Of a stretch of DNA of 64,000 nucleotides, positions 35,083 through 42,866 are shown piece by piece. The position numbers and the translations under genes were made by a program. Numbering within the stretch: the stretch's first letter is position 1; the number at the start of each line of letters is the position of its first letter. The notes below the pieces were generated by a model. That model did not search any database and was not told the DNA's origin. It saw only the letters and a program-made list of their open reading frames with translations. Origin of the DNA: an uncultured Candidatus Saccharibacteria bacterium (GTDB lineage Bacteria > Patescibacteriota > Doudnabacteria > UBA920). Location: positions 17,167-81,166 of the forward strand of contig CAZBAS010000005.1 of NCBI GenBank assembly GCA_964490395.1. The letters are read 5' to 3'.

Positions 35083-35157
35083 TCGGGAGTAGCTCAGCGG
35101 TAGAGCGGCACGCTGTTAACGTGATGGTCCTGGGTTCGATCCCCAGCTCCCGAGCCA
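35083..35157 (+). tRNA. tRNA-Asn (anticodon GTT), CCA encoded
   Basis: Acceptor tcgggag/ctcccga; D-arm gctcagcggtagagc; anticodon loop ctGTTaa; T-arm ctggg-ttcgatc-cccag; discriminator g, then cca. Confidence 0.85.
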
Positions 35158-35470
35158 ACAAAAAAGTAGTACTTTAGTACTACTTTTTTGTTGGCTCGAT
35201 GAGGAGTGCAGGGATCGAAGGGAACGGTCCCGTACCGCAGGGAATTTCATGCGAATACTTGCAGCATGAAATAGTGGCGGGGTCGCGTTAGGTGAGAACT
35301 GAAACGACCTTAAGGAGTTGAAGTTCCACCGTGGGTGACCAATCCCCAGCTCCCGAGCCAACAAAAATACGTCACCTTTTGGTGGCGTTTTTTTCTTGGC
35401 TCATGGAGGAGCGCAGGGATTGAAGGGAACGGTCCCGTACCACGGGAATTTCATGCGAACACTTAGGGCT
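35150..35470 (+). repeat. Direct repeats of the tRNA-Asn 3' end, long hairpins and a duplicated ~65-nt segment
   Basis: atccccagctcccgagccaacaaaaa recurs at about 35339-35364. Each copy is followed by a long hairpin whose stem includes cgagccaac (gagccaacaaaaaagtagtac-ttt-gtactacttttttgttggctc). The segment ttggctcgatgaggagtgcagggatcgaagggaacggtcccgtacc... is repeated imperfectly at about 35396. Confidence 0.45.
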
Positions 35471-35709: not shown

Positions 35710-35742
35710 AAAAAGAGTTCGCCCGAACTCTTTTATTTTTTG
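35710..35742 (+). terminator. Stem-loop with a T-run inside the MAT leader (possible attenuator)
   Basis: aaaagagttcgcccgaactctttt followed by attttttg, between the predicted promoter and the SD/ATG at 35771. Confidence 0.45.
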
Positions 35743-35770
35743 TTCTTCGACAATCCACAGAGGAGGCGCG

Positions 35771-36997
35771 ATGAATTTCGGTTTTGTAAGTCAACATGGT
35801 CTTGGAAGTTTGCAGCAAGAAGTTATTGAGCGTAAAGGAATTGGGCATCCGGACACCCTAACTGACGCGTTAGCTGAACGTATGTCGGCTCACTACGCCC
35901 AGTACACATTGAAGCATTACGGAGTTATTTTGCACCATAATTTTGACAAGTTACACATACTTGGCGGTGCAACAGAGCTAGATTTTGGCGGTGGTAGGCT
36001 GATACGCCCCATCAGAGTTATTATAAACGGTAGAGCGTCTGCAAGCTTCGCCGGTGAACAACTGCCTGTCCAGTACATTCTGGGCGATGCAGCACGGTCA
36101 TTCTTTCAGGAGCGTTTTCCTGGATTGATTGACCCGGCTCGCGACCTTGAATTTCACTGGCTGGTCAGTACTTCCAGTAGCCCAGGCAGAACTAAGCGGA
36201 CTACTGGGGCGAGAGCATACATGTTTAATCCTCGGACAGTCGCCGAAGTGAAAGGTTACGACGGTCCCTTGGTCAACAACGATACTTCCATGGGGTGCGG
36301 CTACGCGCCGTATTCTATTCTGGAAGCAGCGGTGTTGGGTCTGGAGAGGGATTTGAACAGCAGTGTCCGGAAGGATGAATTCCCATGGCTTGGTACCGAC
36401 ATTAAAGTCATGGCCGTGCGGCAAGATGATCTCATTTCCATTACGGTGTGCTTGCCGCAAATAGCAAGTAAAGTGGCAAGTGAACGCGCGTACCAAGAAA
36501 ATTTGGCTACGTTGGACCGGCATATCAGGAGACAGCTTGCCCGGCTACTTCAAGGCGCGCCGTTCGAACTGGGGTATAACACCCGCGACAACAGGCGTAC
36601 AGGCGATTACTATCTTACTGTCACAGGCACTGCCCTTGAGTCTGGCGATGAAGGAGTAGTGGGTCGCGGTAATCGCATCAACGGTCTTATTACACCATTC
36701 CGACCGATGAACTTGGAAGGGGTGTGTGGTAAGAATCCACTCTACCATACGGGAAAGTTATATAACATAGTGGCGCAGCGAATCGCTGAGCGTATTCACC
36801 GCGAAACTGGCGCGTACTGCGAAGCGTACTTAGTGGGCCAAAGTGGACAAGCGTTGCTTGACCCGTGGTCTGCAACTATACGCAGCGCAGATACTAACTT
36901 GGATGCAGCAACTGCCCAAGCGTGGGCAGTTGAAGAAATACAACAAATTCCTGCTATAACCCAAGCGTTGGTGAAGCAGGAATTGACGTTATGGTAA
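35771..36997 (+). CDS. Archaeal-type S-adenosylmethionine synthetase (methionine adenosyltransferase, MAT)
   Basis: ERKGIGHPD, ILHHNFD, NNDTSMGCGYAP, DIKVM and YYLTVTGTALESGDEGVVGRGNRINGLITPFRPMNLEGVCGKNP...HTGKLYN are collinear with the archaeal MAT family; SD gaggagg upstream. Confidence 0.85.
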   Translation: MNFGFVSQHGLGSLQQEVIERKGIGHPDTLTDALAERMSAHYAQYTLKHYGVILHHNFDKLHILGGATELDFGGGRLIRPIRVIINGRASASFAGEQLPVQYILGDAARSFFQERFPGLIDPARDLEFHWLVSTSSSPGRTKRTTGARAYMFNPRTVAEVKGYDGPLVNNDTSMGCGYAPYSILEAAVLGLERDLNSSVRKDEFPWLGTDIKVMAVRQDDLISITVCLPQIASKVASERAYQENLATLDRHIRRQLARLLQGAPFELGYNTRDNRRTGDYYLTVTGTALESGDEGVVGRGNRINGLITPFRPMNLEGVCGKNPLYHTGKLYNIVAQRIAERIHRETGAYCEAYLVGQSGQALLDPWSATIRSADTNLDAATAQAWAVEEIQQIPAITQALVKQELTLW

Positions 36998-37010
36998 GAA
37001 AGGGAAAACC

Positions 37011-38057
37011 ATGCGCAAAGAACCACAAGACTACTCGCAGGCGCGAGATAGTTTCCTTTTGGAGAGGGGTTGGGCGTGTGCAGTCTGCCCCCGTTGCCAA
37101 AAACCATTTTTTACCAAACAGCGTTATCCATTGAATACGTGTGGCTCATACCGGTGCGAAGGTGGATATGTATTTTTGCAACGCCCCGCACCCAAGATAA
37201 AATTGACTGCCGCAGCGGCGGTAGATCATTTTTGTTTTACGGAGTTTGTTCGTGCGCCGACCATAGATTTGGTTCGGCGTGGCGAGCGGACTTTGTTTGC
37301 AAGCGCAGCTGGTCAAGTTCATGATGCTTGTATCTATGGCGGCGATATTACTATCGCTCCGCAGTGTTCGGTACTGCAGCCGGTTGTAAGGCTACAGTGT
37401 CTGCATGCAATAGATGAGCAAGATGGATTCTCCAGTAGTTTTCTCAACGCAGGGTTGGCTTGGTGGCAAGCGAGTCCTGAGCAGCACTTTCAAGCGTTCG
37501 ACAAGTTGCTCCAGTACTTGTCCCTACACGGAATATGTGTTGGGCACTTGGCGTTGAAACTCGACAGCGCAGAGAATGTGTGGGGCGACCTGCACGTACC
37601 CACGGACAGTCTAAAAATGAATTATGGTGGACTCGAAATTGGCATAGCCAACTTCTTTAACCATATTCAAACACCAAATGGCGAATCAAGCTTTAGCGAC
37701 ATTAGTCTTGGCGTGGAGAGGTTTGTATGGGCTGCGAATAAAAACGGCTCGTACTTTGACGACCTCGCTCCGGTCCAGTATGCTTCTGAGGTAAAAAGAA
37801 GCGTGCTAGACGCGGTACGCACGGCCACTTTGCTTATGGCTTCCGGGCTTACTCCTGGGAGCGTCCATCACGGGCAAAAGCTCCGCCTCATTCTGGGTCA
37901 GCTTCGCGACATTGGGTTCTGCCTTGACTGGTTTGGACTTGTCCGGTACTTCCACCAATTTTGGCGGCAGTTTATCGAACTGAGCCGGACAGAGGTGGAA
38001 TGTTATGAAGTATTAGAGCAAGAGCTAATGCACTTGCGCAATACCAGGCCTAACTAA
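37011..38057 (+). CDS. Hypothetical protein with an N-terminal Cys4 zinc ribbon
   Basis: CAVCPRC...CGSYRC; 348 aa; starts 14 nt after the MAT stop, so operonic. Confidence 0.55.
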   Translation: MRKEPQDYSQARDSFLLERGWACAVCPRCQKPFFTKQRYPLNTCGSYRCEGGYVFLQRPAPKIKLTAAAAVDHFCFTEFVRAPTIDLVRRGERTLFASAAGQVHDACIYGGDITIAPQCSVLQPVVRLQCLHAIDEQDGFSSSFLNAGLAWWQASPEQHFQAFDKLLQYLSLHGICVGHLALKLDSAENVWGDLHVPTDSLKMNYGGLEIGIANFFNHIQTPNGESSFSDISLGVERFVWAANKNGSYFDDLAPVQYASEVKRSVLDAVRTATLLMASGLTPGSVHHGQKLRLILGQLRDIGFCLDWFGLVRYFHQFWRQFIELSRTEVECYEVLEQELMHLRNTRPN

Positions 38058-38066
38058 TTCCATTCC

Positions 38067-38726
38067 ATGACTAACATATTTCTTGGCGGCGGGGGGTCTG
38101 CTATAGACTCCTTGCCGCTCGACCAACACTTTGCCAATCTTTTAGATAAGCAGAAACTGCTTGTCTATATTCCCAACGCCATGACCTCGCGCCCTTTTTC
38201 AGAGTGCATGGAATGGTTTACACATACGTTTGCTCCTTTGGGAGTAAATCGTATAGAAATGTGGGATCGGCTGCAGCCGCAGGCGGATGTTTCCGAGATT
38301 GCGGGAATATATGTGGGCGGCGGCGATACGGGCAGGCTTTTGAAACTGATACGAGAATCGCACTTTTCGGAATACATAGTAGAAGCGGTCAAGTCAGGCG
38401 TGCCAGTCTACGGCGGTAGCGCTGGGGCTATTGTACTTGGCCGTGACATTCGCACTGCGCCAGAAGCGGTTAATCTATCCTTGCAAGATGCAACAGGGTT
38501 AGGTTTGCTTGCTGATGAGTGCGTCGCGTGTCACTATGTCCCAGAACGAGAAACCAGTGTTTGTCACGCTGTATCGTCATTGGGCTACTCTATAATTGCT
38601 ATTCCAGAAAAGTCCGGTTTGTATTATAACGGTCAAGTATATTCGGTTTTCGGAACCGAGTCTGCTTGGCTTTTTTCTATGGATGAGAAAAAAGAACTGC
38701 TGTCAGGGGAGAGTTATACGCTGTAA
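38067..38726 (+). CDS. Peptidase S51 family protein (dipeptidase E / cyanophycinase-like)
   Basis: FLGGGGS, IYVGGGDTGRLL and YGGSAGAIV motifs of the S51 Ser hydrolase family. Confidence 0.7.
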   Translation: MTNIFLGGGGSAIDSLPLDQHFANLLDKQKLLVYIPNAMTSRPFSECMEWFTHTFAPLGVNRIEMWDRLQPQADVSEIAGIYVGGGDTGRLLKLIRESHFSEYIVEAVKSGVPVYGGSAGAIVLGRDIRTAPEAVNLSLQDATGLGLLADECVACHYVPERETSVCHAVSSLGYSIIAIPEKSGLYYNGQVYSVFGTESAWLFSMDEKKELLSGESYTL

Positions 38727-38762
38727 TAATTATTGTATTTTATAAATTTAATTGAATTACCT

Positions 38763-39191
38763 ATGGCAACCATAAACCCTTGGATAAACTTTAACGGGAA
38801 TGCAGAAGAAGCATTTACCTTTTACAAATCCGTCTTTGGTGGGGATTTTGGTAAAATAGTACGGTTTAAAGACCTGGCAAGCGCTGAGTTTCCTGTGCCC
38901 GAAGCAGAAGCAGAGAAGATAATGCTTATTACCTTACCCATTGGTCAGGGTAGTGCGCTCATGGCTAACGACGTACCGGAAGTACTGGGCAAAGTAAACG
39001 AGCGCGAAAACCGCAGCAAGATTTCCGTACGCGCGGAAAGTAAAGAAGAAGCCGACAAACTCTTTACCGGCCTTTCCGCCGGGGGAGAAGTAGAAGGCCC
39101 CATGGGCGACGGCCCCTGGGGGTCCTATGCCGGTATGTTCCGCGACAAATACGGCATTGAGTGGATAATTGAATTTGACCCTAGCAAATAA
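38763..39191 (+). CDS. VOC-family protein, PhnB / 3-demethylubiquinone-9 3-methyltransferase-like domain
   Basis: The PWINFNGNAEEAFTFYKSVFGG N-terminus is typical of the PhnB-like glyoxalase fold. Confidence 0.7.
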   Translation: MATINPWINFNGNAEEAFTFYKSVFGGDFGKIVRFKDLASAEFPVPEAEAEKIMLITLPIGQGSALMANDVPEVLGKVNERENRSKISVRAESKEEADKLFTGLSAGGEVEGPMGDGPWGSYAGMFRDKYGIEWIIEFDPSK

Positions 39192-39204: not shown

Positions 39205-39240
39205 CTACAAAAAACACCTGTTTCAAACAGGTGTTTTTTG
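39205..39240. terminator. Bidirectional terminator hairpin
   Basis: aaaaaacacctgtttcaaacaggtgttttttg. Confidence 0.55.
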
Positions 39241-39253
39241 TTATTCTATTGCC

Positions 39254-39949
39254 ATGGAAGATTACAAGACGAGAGCGGTTAATCCGCAACAGTATGATTC
39301 TCCCGACCTGGATTGGAGAATAGACGGAGACGAGAACGCTTATTGGCGCATATTTTTTCGCGACCATTTAAGGCCATTTTTAAATGATCTTCCGGGCAAA
39401 CGAGTTTTGGATATTGGAAGTGGAGTTGGCCAGCTGTTTAATATGCTTAAGGAGTTAGGCGCGGCAGAAATTGTTGGGCTTGAACCATCAAAGAGGAATG
39501 TAGAAGCCTCTCGAAAAACCTACCCTGATATTGTTGTGCTTCAAAAGCCACTTGAACAGTTTAGCTCAGACGCGCAATTCGATGTTGCAATAAGTATTAT
39601 GGTATTTGAGCATATCTCCAATATCGATTTTGCTTTCAGTAAAGTATCCAATTTATTAAAAGGGAAGGGTAGATTCTATTTAATTGTTGGTGATATGGAA
39701 TGCTTTATCCAGTCAATACCAGGAGCGGAGGTAGACGCGCAGCCTTTGCCAGGAGGTGGCTATGCCACAAAAACAGTTAGACCAAATGGAGTAATGTTCG
39801 ATATCTTTCGCCCACTAGCAAGCTATATTAACAGCGCTGAATCGAATGGTTTAAAGCTTGTTGATCAAAAGGGTCTAGTTTCAACCTCCGAGCAGCATAC
39901 ATCCATGGGCGGTAAGCCAATTTGTCATTTGCTAGTTCTTGAGAAATAA
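39254..39949 (+). CDS. Class I SAM-dependent methyltransferase
   Basis: Motif I VLDIGSGVGQL; motif II/post-I acidic residue; 231 aa. Confidence 0.8.
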   Translation: MEDYKTRAVNPQQYDSPDLDWRIDGDENAYWRIFFRDHLRPFLNDLPGKRVLDIGSGVGQLFNMLKELGAAEIVGLEPSKRNVEASRKTYPDIVVLQKPLEQFSSDAQFDVAISIMVFEHISNIDFAFSKVSNLLKGKGRFYLIVGDMECFIQSIPGAEVDAQPLPGGGYATKTVRPNGVMFDIFRPLASYINSAESNGLKLVDQKGLVSTSEQHTSMGGKPICHLLVLEK

Positions 39950-40760: not shown

Positions 40761-42866
40761 ATGGCCTACCAAAATTACGAGAAAAATGAGAGTAAGTTGT
40801 CTCACCATAAGCAGTTTAAGAAGGAGTTAAAACCTCCGCTCCTTACGCTTAATATGACAACCTATTCTTGGATAAATGACCGCATGCCTGAAATGTTATG
40901 GGCGGTTTTAGTCATTGGGAATATAGAAAGAGAAATTGCCTTAAAATTTTTCAGAACTATTGCCGAATTTGTACATAAGAATCCTGACTGTTCAGATGTA
41001 ACACTTACTGGTATTAGCAAATTTCATGAAGAAAAGAAAAAGCAATTTATTCAACTTGCCACAAGCTGGTCAGAGGAAGTAAAAAATGTCTTAAAGCCTT
41101 TGATGTGGCTTGAGCAGCTACCAGCAAAAGAAGTATGGAAGGAATTGCTAGGAGAACCTGCAAGGAAGGATGAAGATTTTAATAAACTAGCCAATGGCGT
41201 ATCTAAGACTTACTGGCACCAATCAGAAGCAGCTACTGACTGTAGATGGATTAAATTTTTGTGCCAGATACTAGGCGGAAAAATGTCTTTTACAAAAGGT
41301 ATGGAAGATAAAGTAAAAGGTGTTTTAGAATATCCAAACTACGGAGATTTGAAAACTATAAGACCCTTTATAAGGGCATCTGAAATTATGCCATCCGACC
41401 CTGATGCGGATAAACCTTTTCATAGTGATTGGTCATTTAATTTTTGGCAACAATGTTTTGATGAAACTGGTTGTCTCCCAGAAGAGAAGGTTAGTCAGAA
41501 AATCCGAAAGAAACAAGACGATTTGTTTCAAGAAATGAAAAAATCAAGAGAGTTTAGATTAAAGCAAATAGTTGATGTAAGACATAATTTAATTGAACAC
41601 TCGATTAAGGAGTCAAAAATTTCTTCTGTAGATGCAAGACATGAAGGAAGTTTTGGTTTGGCTTTGTATGGTCTCTCTCTGTATATTGAAATTATTTTTT
41701 ATACAGTATCACTCTCGATTACGGGCAGATTGGCTATGCGAGCTTTAGTAGAGTGTTATATAACATTTAAGTATTTATTACAAAAGGAAAAAAGTGAGCC
41801 AGCCATATGGGACACTTATCGCGAGTACGGAAACGGGCAACTAAAGCTGCTTTATCTAAAACTCAAAGAAATGAACCAGAAGATAGGAAGTATTGAAATT
41901 GATACACTAGACGAATTAGCGAATGAAGATAAATCGGTTGAGTTTGTTCCTATAAATCTAGGGAATTGGGACTCTGAAAATTTGAGAAAAATGGGCGCAG
42001 AAGCTGGGCTTAAAGATTTATACGATAAATACTATAGCTATACATCTGGTTTCATGCATGGAAGCTGGGGAGCTGTCAGAGAGTCTATTTACCAAAAGTG
42101 CGTAAATCCTCTTCATAGATTTCACAGAATACCTATTTTTGATATGCCTTTAATGTCGAGTGTGGTTGACGATGCAACAGAAATTATGAATGGCATCCTA
42201 GAATGTTTGTCAGTAGCATATCCTAAATTTGATGATAGATTATTAAATTCTGATAGCCTAGACAAAACAGAGGCTAAGTCAGAAGAACTAAGCCCTCAAC
42301 CAATTAAAGCAAGTAGCATCGCTAAGGGAATACATCATAGCATTAAAAATGCGGAAAGATATGTTCAGTCAGCTAAGGAGCTGAAAACTAAAGATAAACA
42401 GGCTGCCTATCTCTTATTTCTTTATGCGCTAGAAGAAATGGGAAAAGTTCCTTTAATTTGGAATGCTTTATTTCATACAGAAACAAAGAGTGAATGGCTA
42501 AAGTGGCAAAGAAGGTTCAAAGACCATGCAGAAAAATTTTGGTTTAGTAGAGATCTTGAAGATTTTGATGAGAGGAAATTATCTAACAAAGAAAATAAGG
42601 CGGAAACAAAAATGGCAGCTAAAAAACTAGATGTATCTTACGTTAGCTTTGATGGTGAATTTCAACCCCCTGAAGATGTAGGCGAAGAGGAATTGGCGAA
42701 GATAGAGTTAAATTGCGAACGCAGAATCGCGTTCTTAAAAAGAAATCATAAATCAATTGAAGAGGACGAAAAAAGAATTGTAGAAGGTTATAAAAAAATG
42801 AAAGGTCTGACACAGGAAGAATTGAAAGAAATGATCAAGAACATGCAAAAAGAAAAATCGGATTAG
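40761..42866 (+). CDS. Large AT-rich, Lys-rich orphan protein (701 aa), unknown function
   Basis: About 35% GC against about 48% in its flanks; no family recognised; internal R-x5-H (VRHNLIEH) and a C-terminal K/E-rich coiled-coil-like tail. Confidence 0.6.
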   Translation: MAYQNYEKNESKLSHHKQFKKELKPPLLTLNMTTYSWINDRMPEMLWAVLVIGNIEREIALKFFRTIAEFVHKNPDCSDVTLTGISKFHEEKKKQFIQLATSWSEEVKNVLKPLMWLEQLPAKEVWKELLGEPARKDEDFNKLANGVSKTYWHQSEAATDCRWIKFLCQILGGKMSFTKGMEDKVKGVLEYPNYGDLKTIRPFIRASEIMPSDPDADKPFHSDWSFNFWQQCFDETGCLPEEKVSQKIRKKQDDLFQEMKKSREFRLKQIVDVRHNLIEHSIKESKISSVDARHEGSFGLALYGLSLYIEIIFYTVSLSITGRLAMRALVECYITFKYLLQKEKSEPAIWDTYREYGNGQLKLLYLKLKEMNQKIGSIEIDTLDELANEDKSVEFVPINLGNWDSENLRKMGAEAGLKDLYDKYYSYTSGFMHGSWGAVRESIYQKCVNPLHRFHRIPIFDMPLMSSVVDDATEIMNGILECLSVAYPKFDDRLLNSDSLDKTEAKSEELSPQPIKASSIAKGIHHSIKNAERYVQSAKELKTKDKQAAYLLFLYALEEMGKVPLIWNALFHTETKSEWLKWQRRFKDHAEKFWFSRDLEDFDERKLSNKENKAETKMAAKKLDVSYVSFDGEFQPPEDVGEEELAKIELNCERRIAFLKRNHKSIEEDEKRIVEGYKKMKGLTQEELKEMIKNMQKEKSD

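Follow-up and report, generated by a model that had tools for sequence, protein, structure and literature searches.

Paralogues of aminoacyl-tRNA synthetases (aaRSs) can serve as amino-acid ligases, as exemplified by MshC, the SerRS-like amino acid:carrier-protein ligases, AsnA and EpmA. To our knowledge, alanyl-tRNA synthetase (AlaRS) is among the most architecturally conserved of the synthetases; its paralogues are otherwise mainly the editing-domain AlaX proteins and AcmF, and we know of essentially none, apart from AcmF, that consists of the catalytic domain only. Here we describe a gene module that includes a predicted AlaRS catalytic-domain paralogue, found in a 64,000-nucleotide stretch of DNA from an uncultured Candidatus Saccharibacteria bacterium (contig CAZBAS010000005.1; this whole stretch is hereafter referred to as the window). 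The AlaRS-like gene lies between the genes for an archaeal-type methionine adenosyltransferase (MAT), the enzyme that makes S-adenosylmethionine (SAM), and for a hydrolase of the peptidase S51 family.

Two described pathways come closest to this arrangement. In mycothiol synthesis, MshC is an aaRS paralogue acting as a tRNA-independent, ATP-dependent amino-acid ligase, the role that we propose for the AlaRS-like protein. The pathway also comprises Ino1, the GT4-family glycosyltransferase MshA, the phosphatase MshA2, the PIG-L-family proteins MshB and Mca, and MshD; extended operons of the module contain an Ino1-type inositol-3-phosphate synthase (MIPS), GT4 and PIG-L proteins and a phosphatase. 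However, MshC is derived from the class I CysRS, whereas the module ligase would be derived from the class II AlaRS. Mycothiol synthesis involves neither a MAT nor an S51 protein, both of which belong to the invariant core of the module, and the module is devoid of the GNAT protein MshD. The mycothiol pathway is a feature of Actinobacteria, whereas the module is clustered and mobile and resides in Patescibacteria, DPANN archaea and Nitrososphaeria; its version in the window is without sugar or inositol genes.

The second is the AcmF/AcmE pair of ascamycin synthesis. Like the module protein, AcmF is AlaRS-like and truncated, lacking the editing and C-Ala domains; it functions in small-molecule synthesis, is paired with an aminoacyl-removing hydrolase and has a link to a 5′-modified adenosine. 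AcmF is of the bacterial type, keeps the tRNA-recognition domain, uses Ala-tRNA and has lost adenylation residues (N219Q, D232E), and 5′-O-sulfamoyl-adenosine sits in its aminoacyl-adenylate pocket (PMC12945691). The module ligase, in contrast, is of the archaeal type and shorter, keeps Asp230 and the motif 2 and motif 3 arginines, and has only a part of the helical domain. The hydrolases differ as well, AcmE being an alpha/beta hydrolase and the module protein an S51 member.

Other class II paralogues (the SerRS-like amino acid:carrier-protein ligases, AsnA, EpmA/PoxA and HisZ) resemble the module ligase in having a truncated class II core used, as we propose here, for non-translational acylation without tRNA binding, and the carrier-protein ligases are likewise archaeal-type enzymes in bacteria. 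They differ in that the module protein is AlaRS-derived, with no carrier protein or EF-P-type target conserved nearby. Finally, the pairing of the AlaRS-like and S51 genes recalls the synthetase and hydrolase gene pair cphA/cphB. As detailed below, the module belongs to none of these systems, nor do its MAT and S51 proteins belong to the canonical MAT or PepE/cyanophycinase groups.

The three genes of the module are arranged in the window as follows.

35771-36997, + strand: ORF1, archaeal-type methionine adenosyltransferase (MAT), 408 aa, PF01941.
37011-38057, + strand: ORF2, predicted AlaRS catalytic-domain paralogue of subtype A (defined below), 348 aa, assigned by TIGR03683, profile comparison and AF2/Foldseek.
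38067-38726, + strand: ORF3, peptidase S51 / type-1 glutamine-amidotransferase-like hydrolase, 219 aa, PF03575.

All three open reading frames (ORFs) are co-directional. The spacers are 13 nt between ORF1 and ORF2 and 9 nt between ORF2 and ORF3, and thus ORF2 and ORF3 start 14 and 10 nt past the preceding stop codons. A GAGGAGG ribosome-binding site is located a few nucleotides before the MAT ATG at 35771. An initial annotation of this DNA had reported this trio with the same coordinates, strand and distances, and had described it as a tight unit in an arrangement without precedent. Both statements were borne out: the gaps are small, and neither the AlaRS-like family nor the triplet is described in Pfam, NCBIfam, PADLOC, PHROGs or the searchable literature, where the nearest paper was the review on AcmF.

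The initial annotation had proposed that the triplet be sought in related genomes, and we found it as neighbouring genes in nearly every relative examined. Contig look-ups for five AlaRS-like homologues revealed MAT, AlaRS-like and S51 genes in each case, the order in one of them (L008) being rearranged and convergent. A scan of species-representative genomes identified 21 loci and a scan of metagenomes 39 more; the non-redundant loci number 58. Among the 21, the bacterial sources are Saccharibacteria, Paceibacterota and further Patescibacteria, and the archaeal ones Woese-, Aenigm- and Nanoarchaeota; a few other metagenome-assembled genomes make up the rest, several loci of this last group being on short contigs that are possibly mis-binned. 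When the window proteins were used as tblastn queries, all three genes were detected in almost every locus having enough sequence, even where the AlaRS-like proteins were only 20-28 % identical. Twenty of the 58 loci had at least 3 kb on both sides; an S51 gene was present within 6 kb in all 20 of them and a MAT gene in 19. In the reverse direction, starting from four MAT homologues on long contigs, an S51 gene was adjacent in 4/4 cases and an AlaRS-like gene in 3/4. The gene order varies among the loci, and the linkage stays. The AlaRS-like gene was never seen without a MAT or S51 neighbour and never as a full AlaRS; the S51 gene was missing from some loci of subtype B (L074, L075 and L077). 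The adjacency of the triplet is far beyond chance.

On the fourth of these contigs, which is Patescibacteria-like (L033, 7001-11440), the genes run MAT, S51, full-length ProRS and GT4, with no AlaRS-like gene. Either a complete synthetase replaces the paralogue there, or a housekeeping ProRS gene has been inserted into the operon.

We evaluated the co-divergence of the three proteins by a mirror-tree test, in which pairwise-identity matrices over 34 loci were compared by the Mantel test. The AlaRS-like and S51 proteins co-diverged tightly (Pearson 0.93, Spearman 0.82, Mantel p 0.001). The correlations of MAT with the AlaRS-like protein (Pearson 0.59, Spearman 0.31, Mantel p 0.001) and with S51 (Pearson 0.63, Spearman 0.42, Mantel p 0.001) were lower. 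Predicted fusion proteins join the AlaRS-like protein to S51 (P0024), the AlaRS-like protein to a class I methyltransferase (P0094), and S51 to a GT4 (L029-L031).

The hosts are Patescibacteria, DPANN archaea and Nitrososphaeria, with a concentration in the former two; no cultured host of the module was found. Histone and aIF5A genes are also found on the Nitrososphaeria contigs, where integrases are neighbours of the triplet. The module is a horizontally mobile unit that has crossed the bacteria-archaea boundary. It was not encountered in the viral contigs of IMG/VR. Neither MAT nor the AlaRS-like protein had a match in PADLOC or PHROGs, and S51 matched only one PHROG, of unknown function, and nothing in PADLOC. 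In a Nitrososphaerales locus (L009, 1-4100), the module adjoins ThiF/E1-like, Prok-JAB and DUF87 genes, a set of the ubiquitin-like conjugation or defence type; the AlaRS-like gene of this locus is apparently disrupted, with a 238-aa ORF on one strand and the remainder matching the opposite strand.

The 348-aa product of ORF2 had initially been presented as an unknown protein with an N-terminal Zn ribbon. The ribbon was confirmed, as the N-terminal cysteines are spaced C23-x2-C26-P-R-C29...C44-x4-C49, and C26, C29, C44 and C49 are kept in about two-thirds of the AlaRS-like family. The protein as a whole proved to have a recognizable identity. The window protein had no match in Pfam, and its similarity to the N-terminus of archaeal AlaRS was weak but specific, both with TIGR03683 (E 4e-5, 22 bits against a cut-off of 744.7) and, as a single sequence, with the archaeal AlaRS structures PDB 2zze, 2ztg and 3wqy (E 2e-3 to 8e-3). 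A profile built from 11 homologues matched 2ztg, 3wqy and 2zze with E values of 6e-20 to 5e-17. Profile positions 14-268 corresponded to AlaRS residues 11-279, followed by a second short stretch up to about residue 395, and the alignments ended at about residue 395-420 of archaeal AlaRS chains that are 739-906 aa long. Structure prediction and a Foldseek search had been recommended for this protein; the AF2 model (pLDDT 77, pTM 0.80) retrieved archaeal AlaRS first (TMq 0.75, E 1e-15), then the catalytic fragments of bacterial and human AlaRS, and then GlyRS-alpha. We thus assign the 348-aa protein, from sequence and predicted structure, as a truncated paralogue of the catalytic (aminoacylation) domain of archaeal AlaRS. 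Its Zn ribbon is the N-terminal Cys cluster of archaeal AlaRS. The initial annotation had held that a match to a well-known family with a standalone role would speak against the module. Although the fold is a known one, the match does not have this effect, because the protein is never a full AlaRS and does not occur by itself.

An exhaustive profile search of 1.84 billion representatives (50 % identity clusters) yielded 562 relatives of the AlaRS-like protein, 399 of them at E<1e-10 and 216 at E<1e-30. Among the best 150 hits listed, the length was nearly always 330-420 aa; thus, the family stands by itself rather than being made up of fragments of AlaRS. The window protein fails the AlaRS family thresholds of Pfam and NCBIfam, falls short of the length of more than 700 aa and ends in a short helical tail. 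The family has no distal tRNA-recognition part (Mid2, which reads G3:U70), no editing domain and no C-Ala domain. Over 128 diverse members, the class II adenylation core hardly varies; it comprises Q123-P124-x2-R127 (motif 2), F144 (adenine stacking), D230 (binding of the alpha-amino group) and G234-x-E236-R237 (motif 3). R127, F144, D230, E236 and R237 are conserved at 96-100 % in these representatives, with the Asp being present in 123/128 and the motif 3 Arg in 128/128. The class II machinery for ATP and aminoacyl-adenylate is, as judged from these residues, retained. A decayed AlaRS pseudogene was ruled out, since the catalytic residues are invariant. A split AlaRS of the Nanoarchaeum style is unlikely: in the loci examined, no partner half is conserved next to it, and the protein is also found in bacteria, where a bacterial AlaRS would be expected.

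In the amino acid pocket, as mapped by profile alignment and our own reading of it onto E. coli M43/N212/V214/G237, an invariant Gln occupies the position of the Met in the AlaRS 'NAGM' motif. The pocket residues, together with the accessory gene content that they track, divide the family into two subtypes.

Subtype A (that of the window): Zn ribbon present; pocket I/V212, N214, F216 and S/G232; accompanied by MIPS, radical SAM, His-phosphatase and methyltransferases.
Subtype B: Zn ribbon absent; pocket D/E212, I/V/L214 and G232; accompanied by GT4, PIG-L and MIPS.

Because Gln replaces the NAGM Met and the pocket carries the further Asn or Asp changes, the predicted substrate is probably not plain alanine.

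The MAT of the window matched PF01941 over its full length (residues 13-403, 335.6 bits against a cut-off of 27, E 4.8e-100) and the archaeal MAT structure PDB 6s81 (E 4e-68). No bacterial MetK signature was found by a motif search of the six-frame translation, which covered the 64-kb window only and not the rest of the genome. The enzyme is thus archaeal-type, not bacterial MetK, as annotated initially. The motifs quoted in support of this were GHPD, ILHHN, the NDTS block (NDTSMGCGYAP) and the GRGNR block; all are present, except that the last one reads GRGNRINGLITPFRPM and ends with N instead of S. The score of the protein (280-320 bits) was below the cut-offs (435-577) of all five NCBIfam MAT models, including PRK04439.

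To locate the differences, 27 module MATs were aligned with the Pf, Tk and Ss MAT sequences, with residue roles taken from PMC9298006. The His that binds the Met carboxylate (HHN; Pf H59, H55 in the VILHHN of the window protein), the adenine-stacking Tyr (Pf Y268), NDTS and GRGNR are kept across the module MATs, which thus agree with the canonical archaeal enzymes (Pf, Tk, Ss, Mj) in full-length fold, GHPD and these elements. They depart from them, besides missing the equivalog cut-offs, in the gating loop and at Mj I351. The gating-loop segment IGxGSxDLV has been lost and replaced by a loop that is 11-15 residues longer, of the form S[SG]PG[KR]T...R..F.PR (SSPGRTKR...F.PR in the window). This replacement removes the segment bearing the adenine-N6 Asp (Pf D141) and the methyl-pocket Leu (Mj L147). 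At the other methyl-pocket position, Mj I351, the module MATs have Ser, Asn, Ala or Thr in 26/27 cases (Ser in the window) and Met in the remaining one (L028). In addition, the canonical TGTSAExGDDG has become [IT]GS[SA][IL]ESGDEG in most of them. The module MATs form, by their sequences, a distinct subtype in which the gating loop and the methyl pocket appear remodelled. An engineered MjMAT with L147A/I351A takes bulky S-substituents, and an Ile-to-Ala change at the I351-equivalent position lowers product inhibition in other MATs (PMC9298006). Since the change of this Ile to Ser, Asn or Ala is of the kind that eases product inhibition elsewhere, the module MAT may be a high-flux source of SAM.

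The product of ORF3 had been described as a dipeptidase E/cyanophycinase-like S51 hydrolase. The family assignment was correct (PF03575 Peptidase_S51, 89.5 bits against a cut-off of 23.9, E 3e-25), but the two named enzymes were matched only weakly, with scores below the equivalog cut-offs for PepE (62.8 vs 156 bits) and cyanophycinase (41.8 vs 126.6 bits). The window protein aligned with the PepE structure 1fy2 (E 5e-10), its Ser and Glu corresponding to S120 and E192 of PepE. Its score with the Pfam model GATase_3 (28.2 bits) likewise exceeded the cut-off of 27, and it matched the PdxT/SNO families. The catalytic triad Ser118-His156-Glu181 is 100 % conserved in the 34 module S51 proteins, which are predicted hydrolases with an intact Ser-His-Glu triad. 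They share this triad and the Pfam domain with PepE and cyanophycinase, and differ in the sub-threshold scores and in that some are fused to the AlaRS-like protein or to a GT4.

A homologue from Alicyclobacillus acidiphilus, a cultured Firmicute (L036, 4144-8543), 39 % identical, is encoded among GNAT, NTP_transf_6, HAD and APH genes and stands alone, with no MAT or AlaRS-like gene there. Thus, the S51 subfamily is not confined to the module. This context hints that the subfamily may also include standalone detoxifying or resistance hydrolases.

We surveyed the accessory genes by clustering and by targeted searches of the neighbourhoods. An Ino1-type MIPS was a recurrent partner; its closest match was M. 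tuberculosis Ino1 (1gr0, E 2e-104), and it also matched TIGR03450 'mycothiol_INO1' (E 9e-116). Other recurrent partners were GT4 glycosyltransferases, radical SAM/SPASM enzymes, class I methyltransferases, and PIG-L-family deacetylases, for which the best NCBIfam matches, though weak, were Mca and MshB. In the first table of 30 loci, MIPS was counted 14 times, GT4 nine times and PIG-L four times, and further cases appeared in loci added later. Representative operons contain MIPS, phosphatase, radical SAM, MAT, ligase and S51 (L014, L016); MIPS, MAT, ligase, S51-GT4, GT4 and PIG-L (L031); or MAT, ligase, S51, GT4 and PIG-L (L034, L035). Neither GT4 nor PIG-L was ever found near a subtype A gene; both occur near subtype B. 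No GNAT of the MshD kind was conserved among the module neighbourhoods. By eye, a 201-aa ORF near one module (L018, 15923-16528) looks like a GNAT of the LuxI / N-acyl-amino-acid-synthase type and, as such, would use SAM.

Phosphatases of three unrelated families (His_Phos_1, IMPase-type and PHP-type) recur in the operons. They were observed in equivalent places, as an IMPase/HisN-like protein (L029, 12723-13502), a PHP/HisJ-like protein (L032, 9921-10721) and a His_Phos_1/CobC-like protein (L014, 13067-13633), with the IMPase-type and PHP-type proteins both scoring best against histidinol-phosphatase models. This looks like non-orthologous displacement at one required dephosphorylation step. 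The ligase-methyltransferase fusion P0094 is encoded in a large sugar-tailoring cluster (L077, 600-14000) together with an FkbM-type and a class I methyltransferase, a polysaccharide deacetylase, GT2 and GT4 proteins, a 353-aa uncharacterised protein, two radical SAM enzymes, an archaeal-type MAT and a DegT sugar aminotransferase; no S51 gene was called in the 14.5 kb of this locus examined. The radical SAM partners had no informative structural relative, and their matches to the viperin family were weak. A system for ribosomally synthesized and post-translationally modified peptides around the radical SAM/SPASM enzyme is unlikely, since no conserved precursor peptide accompanies it and not all loci have the radical SAM gene.

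In the window, the triplet is followed by two further genes and bracketed by two hairpins.

35711-35744, + strand: hairpin with a T-run, directly 5′ of the MAT gene (consensus scan match only).
38733-39191, + strand: VOC / glyoxalase-bleomycin-resistance-fold protein (YjdN/PhnB-like; PF00903 E 3e-11, PF06983 E 2e-8).
39207-39241, + strand: strong intrinsic-terminator-like hairpin with a 16-bp stem and a T tail (consensus scan).
39254-39949, + strand: class I SAM-dependent methyltransferase, just past the terminator-like hairpin (PF08241 E 9e-14).

The upstream hairpin probably marks the end of an upstream transcript and the 5′ boundary of the unit, and the downstream one would close it. With these flanking elements, the transcription unit probably comprises the MAT, AlaRS-like, S51 and VOC genes. 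The VOC gene, the fourth of the unit, was otherwise found only in the closest Saccharibacteria locus (L011), where the copy is 82-86 % identical, and is therefore probably outside the conserved core. The methyltransferase is a candidate tailoring enzyme; at other loci the module is flanked by class I methyltransferases unrelated to that of the window.

Upstream, a tRNA-Asn(GTT) gene (35083-35157) lies about 610 nt before the MAT gene. Its 3′ end together with the next 7 nt (26 nt, 35139-35164) recurs without a mismatch 203 nt downstream (35342-35367). Behind each copy come a T-run hairpin and a repeat of about 80 nt (35184-35260 and 35389-35464), the repeats being 84-95 % identical. This tandem duplication of about 204 bp resembles an att-type integration scar at the head of an island. 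No third copy of the tRNA 3′-end repeat, which would delimit the island, and no integrase were found in the window. A search for a riboswitch or other RNA upstream of the module gave tRNA-Asn only. Downstream, the segment 38733-51252 consists of small, mostly co-directional genes of the accessory or resistance type typical of a variable island, encoding the VOC protein, the class I methyltransferase, two RibD_C, two DUF1801 and one DUF1761 protein, a TrmB-like regulator, a Pol-beta nucleotidyltransferase, an APH phosphotransferase and an Rce1-like protease. Several genes of the downstream region are in common with L011. About 2 kb downstream of the module, a 701-aa protein (40761-42866) with DUF5677 and HEPN/AbiV matches DitA, a candidate defence protein of PADLOC (E 2e-80).

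What might such a module do? We favour the interpretation, to which we give a little less than an even chance, that the core of a mobile small-molecule pathway consists of an amino-acid ligase working without tRNA, the hydrolase that belongs to it and a dedicated source of SAM. The AlaRS-like enzyme would activate a small, probably polar amino acid with ATP as aminoacyl-AMP and then pass it, without tRNA, to an amine or hydroxyl group on a small acceptor molecule, a step analogous to that of MshC in the mycothiol pathway. For the extended operons, we propose as acceptor a cyclitol or amino-sugar produced by way of Ino1-type MIPS, GT4, a phosphatase and an MshB/Mca-like PIG-L protein, with its free amine exposed by the deacetylase or made by an aminotransferase. 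S51 would be the matching amidohydrolase for turnover, recycling or proofreading of the conjugate. MAT, possibly a de-inhibited high-flux enzyme, would feed SAM to the enzymes tailoring the product, namely the methyltransferases and the radical SAM enzymes. The initial annotation had suggested a SAM-dependent modification or salvage module. This description was too vague: the accessory genes (MIPS, GT4, PIG-L, phosphatases, radical SAM, methyltransferases and DegT) point to the synthesis of a cyclitol or amino-sugar conjugated to an amino acid, with SAM-dependent tailoring, and not to salvage.

Several observations weigh against the interpretation just given. The 64 kb of the window contain no MIPS, GT4, PIG-L, radical SAM or phosphatase partner, and a methyltransferase only. 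The accessory genes being present only in relatives, the acceptor assigned to the window is borrowed from them; moreover, since subtype A never lies beside GT4 or PIG-L, there is no obvious amine acceptor for the window's type. The MAT is more constant than the SAM-using enzymes, and its adenine-N6 Asp and gating loop have been rebuilt, both of which are odd if the enzyme merely supplies SAM. A ligase and a hydrolase acting on the same bond need a rationale of recycling or proofreading, which is assumed here. No Cys- or thiol-specific feature was found, and 'mycothiol-like' thus describes nothing more than the logic of the pathway. In AlaRS, a helical region approaches the acceptor end of the tRNA; the AlaRS-like protein retains about 90 residues of this region, which leaves room for an involvement of tRNA. 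The whole case, finally, is computational.

The main rival explanation, which is unlikely although it would better account for the MAT in the invariant core and for the loci that have the core only, makes the MAT product itself the acceptor. SAM, or an analogue made by the remodelled MAT, would be a ligand or acceptor in the AlaRS-like aminoacyl-adenylate pocket and would be aminoacylated, for example at the amino group of its Met part or at its ribose. S51, as a hydrolase of the dipeptidase type, would take the amino acid off again, for activation or self-protection, and the product would be a masked SAM or a Trojan-horse-like antimetabolite. MAT belongs to the invariant core, whereas every candidate gene for making another acceptor is optional, and loci with the core only (such as the window and the Nitrososphaeria islands) must run on universal metabolites plus the MAT product. 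The MAT pocket has been rebuilt clade-wide around the S-methyl group and adenine N6. AcmF/AcmE provides a precedent for an AlaRS-like enzyme that binds a 5′-modified adenosine and is paired with an aminoacyl-removing hydrolase (PMC12945691). Characterised S51 enzymes are, as generally known, dipeptidases acting on substrates with a free N-terminus, and homologues of the S51 subfamily also occur among resistance-type genes. On the other hand, the module ligase, unlike AcmF, keeps the full adenylation set, with the motif 3 Arg at 100 %, and the co-divergence of MAT and ligase is loose (r ~0.6 vs 0.93 for S51). The frequent MIPS, GT4, PIG-L and DegT genes would be left unexplained, no transporter or immunity gene is conserved, and aminoacyl-SAM is not a known metabolite.

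Next comes, as an improbable alternative, an island-borne system for defence against phages or for conflict between microbes. Upon infection, its enzymes would form or break down a derivative of a nucleotide or amino acid that is toxic or acts as a signal. It would fit the position of the window module at the head of an island, by tRNA-Asn with its att-like duplication and about 2 kb from the DitA-like gene, and the surroundings of other loci, flanked by integrases or recombinases, by ThiF, JAB and DUF87 genes, or by a transposase. The patchy distribution across the bacteria-archaea boundary and the radical SAM partners with weak viperin-family matches also agree with it. However, no core protein matched PADLOC-DB 2.0, and IMG/VR viral contigs gave no occurrence. 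Several loci lie in housekeeping contexts (ribosomal proteins, by our own ORF reading; GatCAB, sigma-70 and DnaG), and the accessory genes are typical of metabolic biosynthesis, with no conserved sensor, nuclease or effector.

Ranked below it, with a still smaller chance of being right, is a two-subunit amidotransferase, in which S51, with its class I glutamine-amidotransferase fold, would free ammonia or an amine from an amide donor and the AlaRS-like subunit would adenylate and amidate a carboxylate in the manner of AsnA, MAT acting upstream or downstream. The GATase_3 score above the cut-off and the PdxT/SNO matches of S51 are in line with this scheme, the tight co-divergence and the fusion are reminiscent of synthetase-glutaminase pairs, and AsnA is, as general knowledge, a class II aaRS paralogue that amidates via an acyl-adenylate. 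Nevertheless, the nucleophile of S51 is Ser in 34/34 proteins and not the Cys of true amidotransferases, and its closest relatives in structure and sequence are peptidases. The lack of S51 in L074, L075 and L077 means that the ligase apparently works without it.

Lower again in our ranking is an AlaRS-like protein that is still linked to tRNA, either as a minimal or split AlaRS charging tRNA or as an aminoacyl-tRNA-dependent transferase. After its catalytic core, the protein retains an AlaRS helical segment with D267-x2-R270, AcmF shows that truncated AlaRS-like enzymes can use Ala-tRNA (PMC12945691), and a full-length ProRS takes the place of the AlaRS-like gene in L033. These points are countered by the architecture: the protein is only 348-420 aa long, the distal tRNA-recognition part is absent, only the start of the post-core helical region aligns, and the editing and C-Ala domains are absent. 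Moreover, the protein is archaeal-type in bacteria that would have a bacterial AlaRS of their own, never occurs without MAT or S51 neighbours, and has a pocket that differs from that of AlaRS (Gln for Met; Asn or Asp changes).

The least probable alternative is a lineage-specific housekeeping neighbourhood without shared function (an ordinary SAM synthetase, an unrelated peptidase and a decayed AlaRS fragment): many members are indeed Patescibacteria, where archaeal-type genes are common and operons compact, and MAT co-diverges less tightly than the other two, but the linkage outlasts rearrangements, divergence to 20-25 % identity and bacteria-archaea transfer, the Nitrososphaeria triplet lies beside integrases in hosts that presumably own a MAT, as archaea generally do, the catalytic residues of all three proteins are so strongly conserved that none can be decayed, and fusions exist.

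Returning to the interpretation that we favour, in which the AlaRS-derived protein is a ligase working without tRNA, a more specific version may be offered, tentatively and as one that could well prove wrong: Patescibacteria, DPANN archaea and some Nitrososphaeria would have in common, through horizontal transfer, an unrecognised metabolite made via this ligase, the acceptor being either an inositol or amino-sugar scaffold, as for a mycothiol-like cofactor of these ultra-small symbionts, or a sulfonium nucleoside from a re-specified MAT, giving an 'aminoacyl-SAM'-type compound, and the co-evolving S51 would be the hydrolase dedicated to it. The module would be a new form of pathway based on ligation by an aaRS paralogue, and there is a real chance of new chemistry.

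The MAT has an interest of its own. The module enzymes are naturally altered at Mj I351, the site that engineers have mutated for broader substrate acceptance and less product inhibition, and are without the loop segment that bears Mj L147, which makes them of practical interest for the production of SAM analogues. The AlaRS-like family, comprising at least 216 clusters at 50 % identity (E<1e-30) and annotated as 'hypothetical', adds a branch to the metabolic aaRS paralogues. If the more specific version given above is true, it would represent a new branch of aaRS paralogue function together with a new natural MAT specificity. Patescibacteria and DPANN archaea have minimal biosynthesis. That they carry a conserved and mobile pathway, equipped with a SAM synthase and with enzymes for inositol and amino-sugar chemistry, suggests a metabolite that has gone unrecognised in these organisms, perhaps a cofactor, protectant, surface decoration or antimetabolite with a bearing on their episymbiotic lifestyle.

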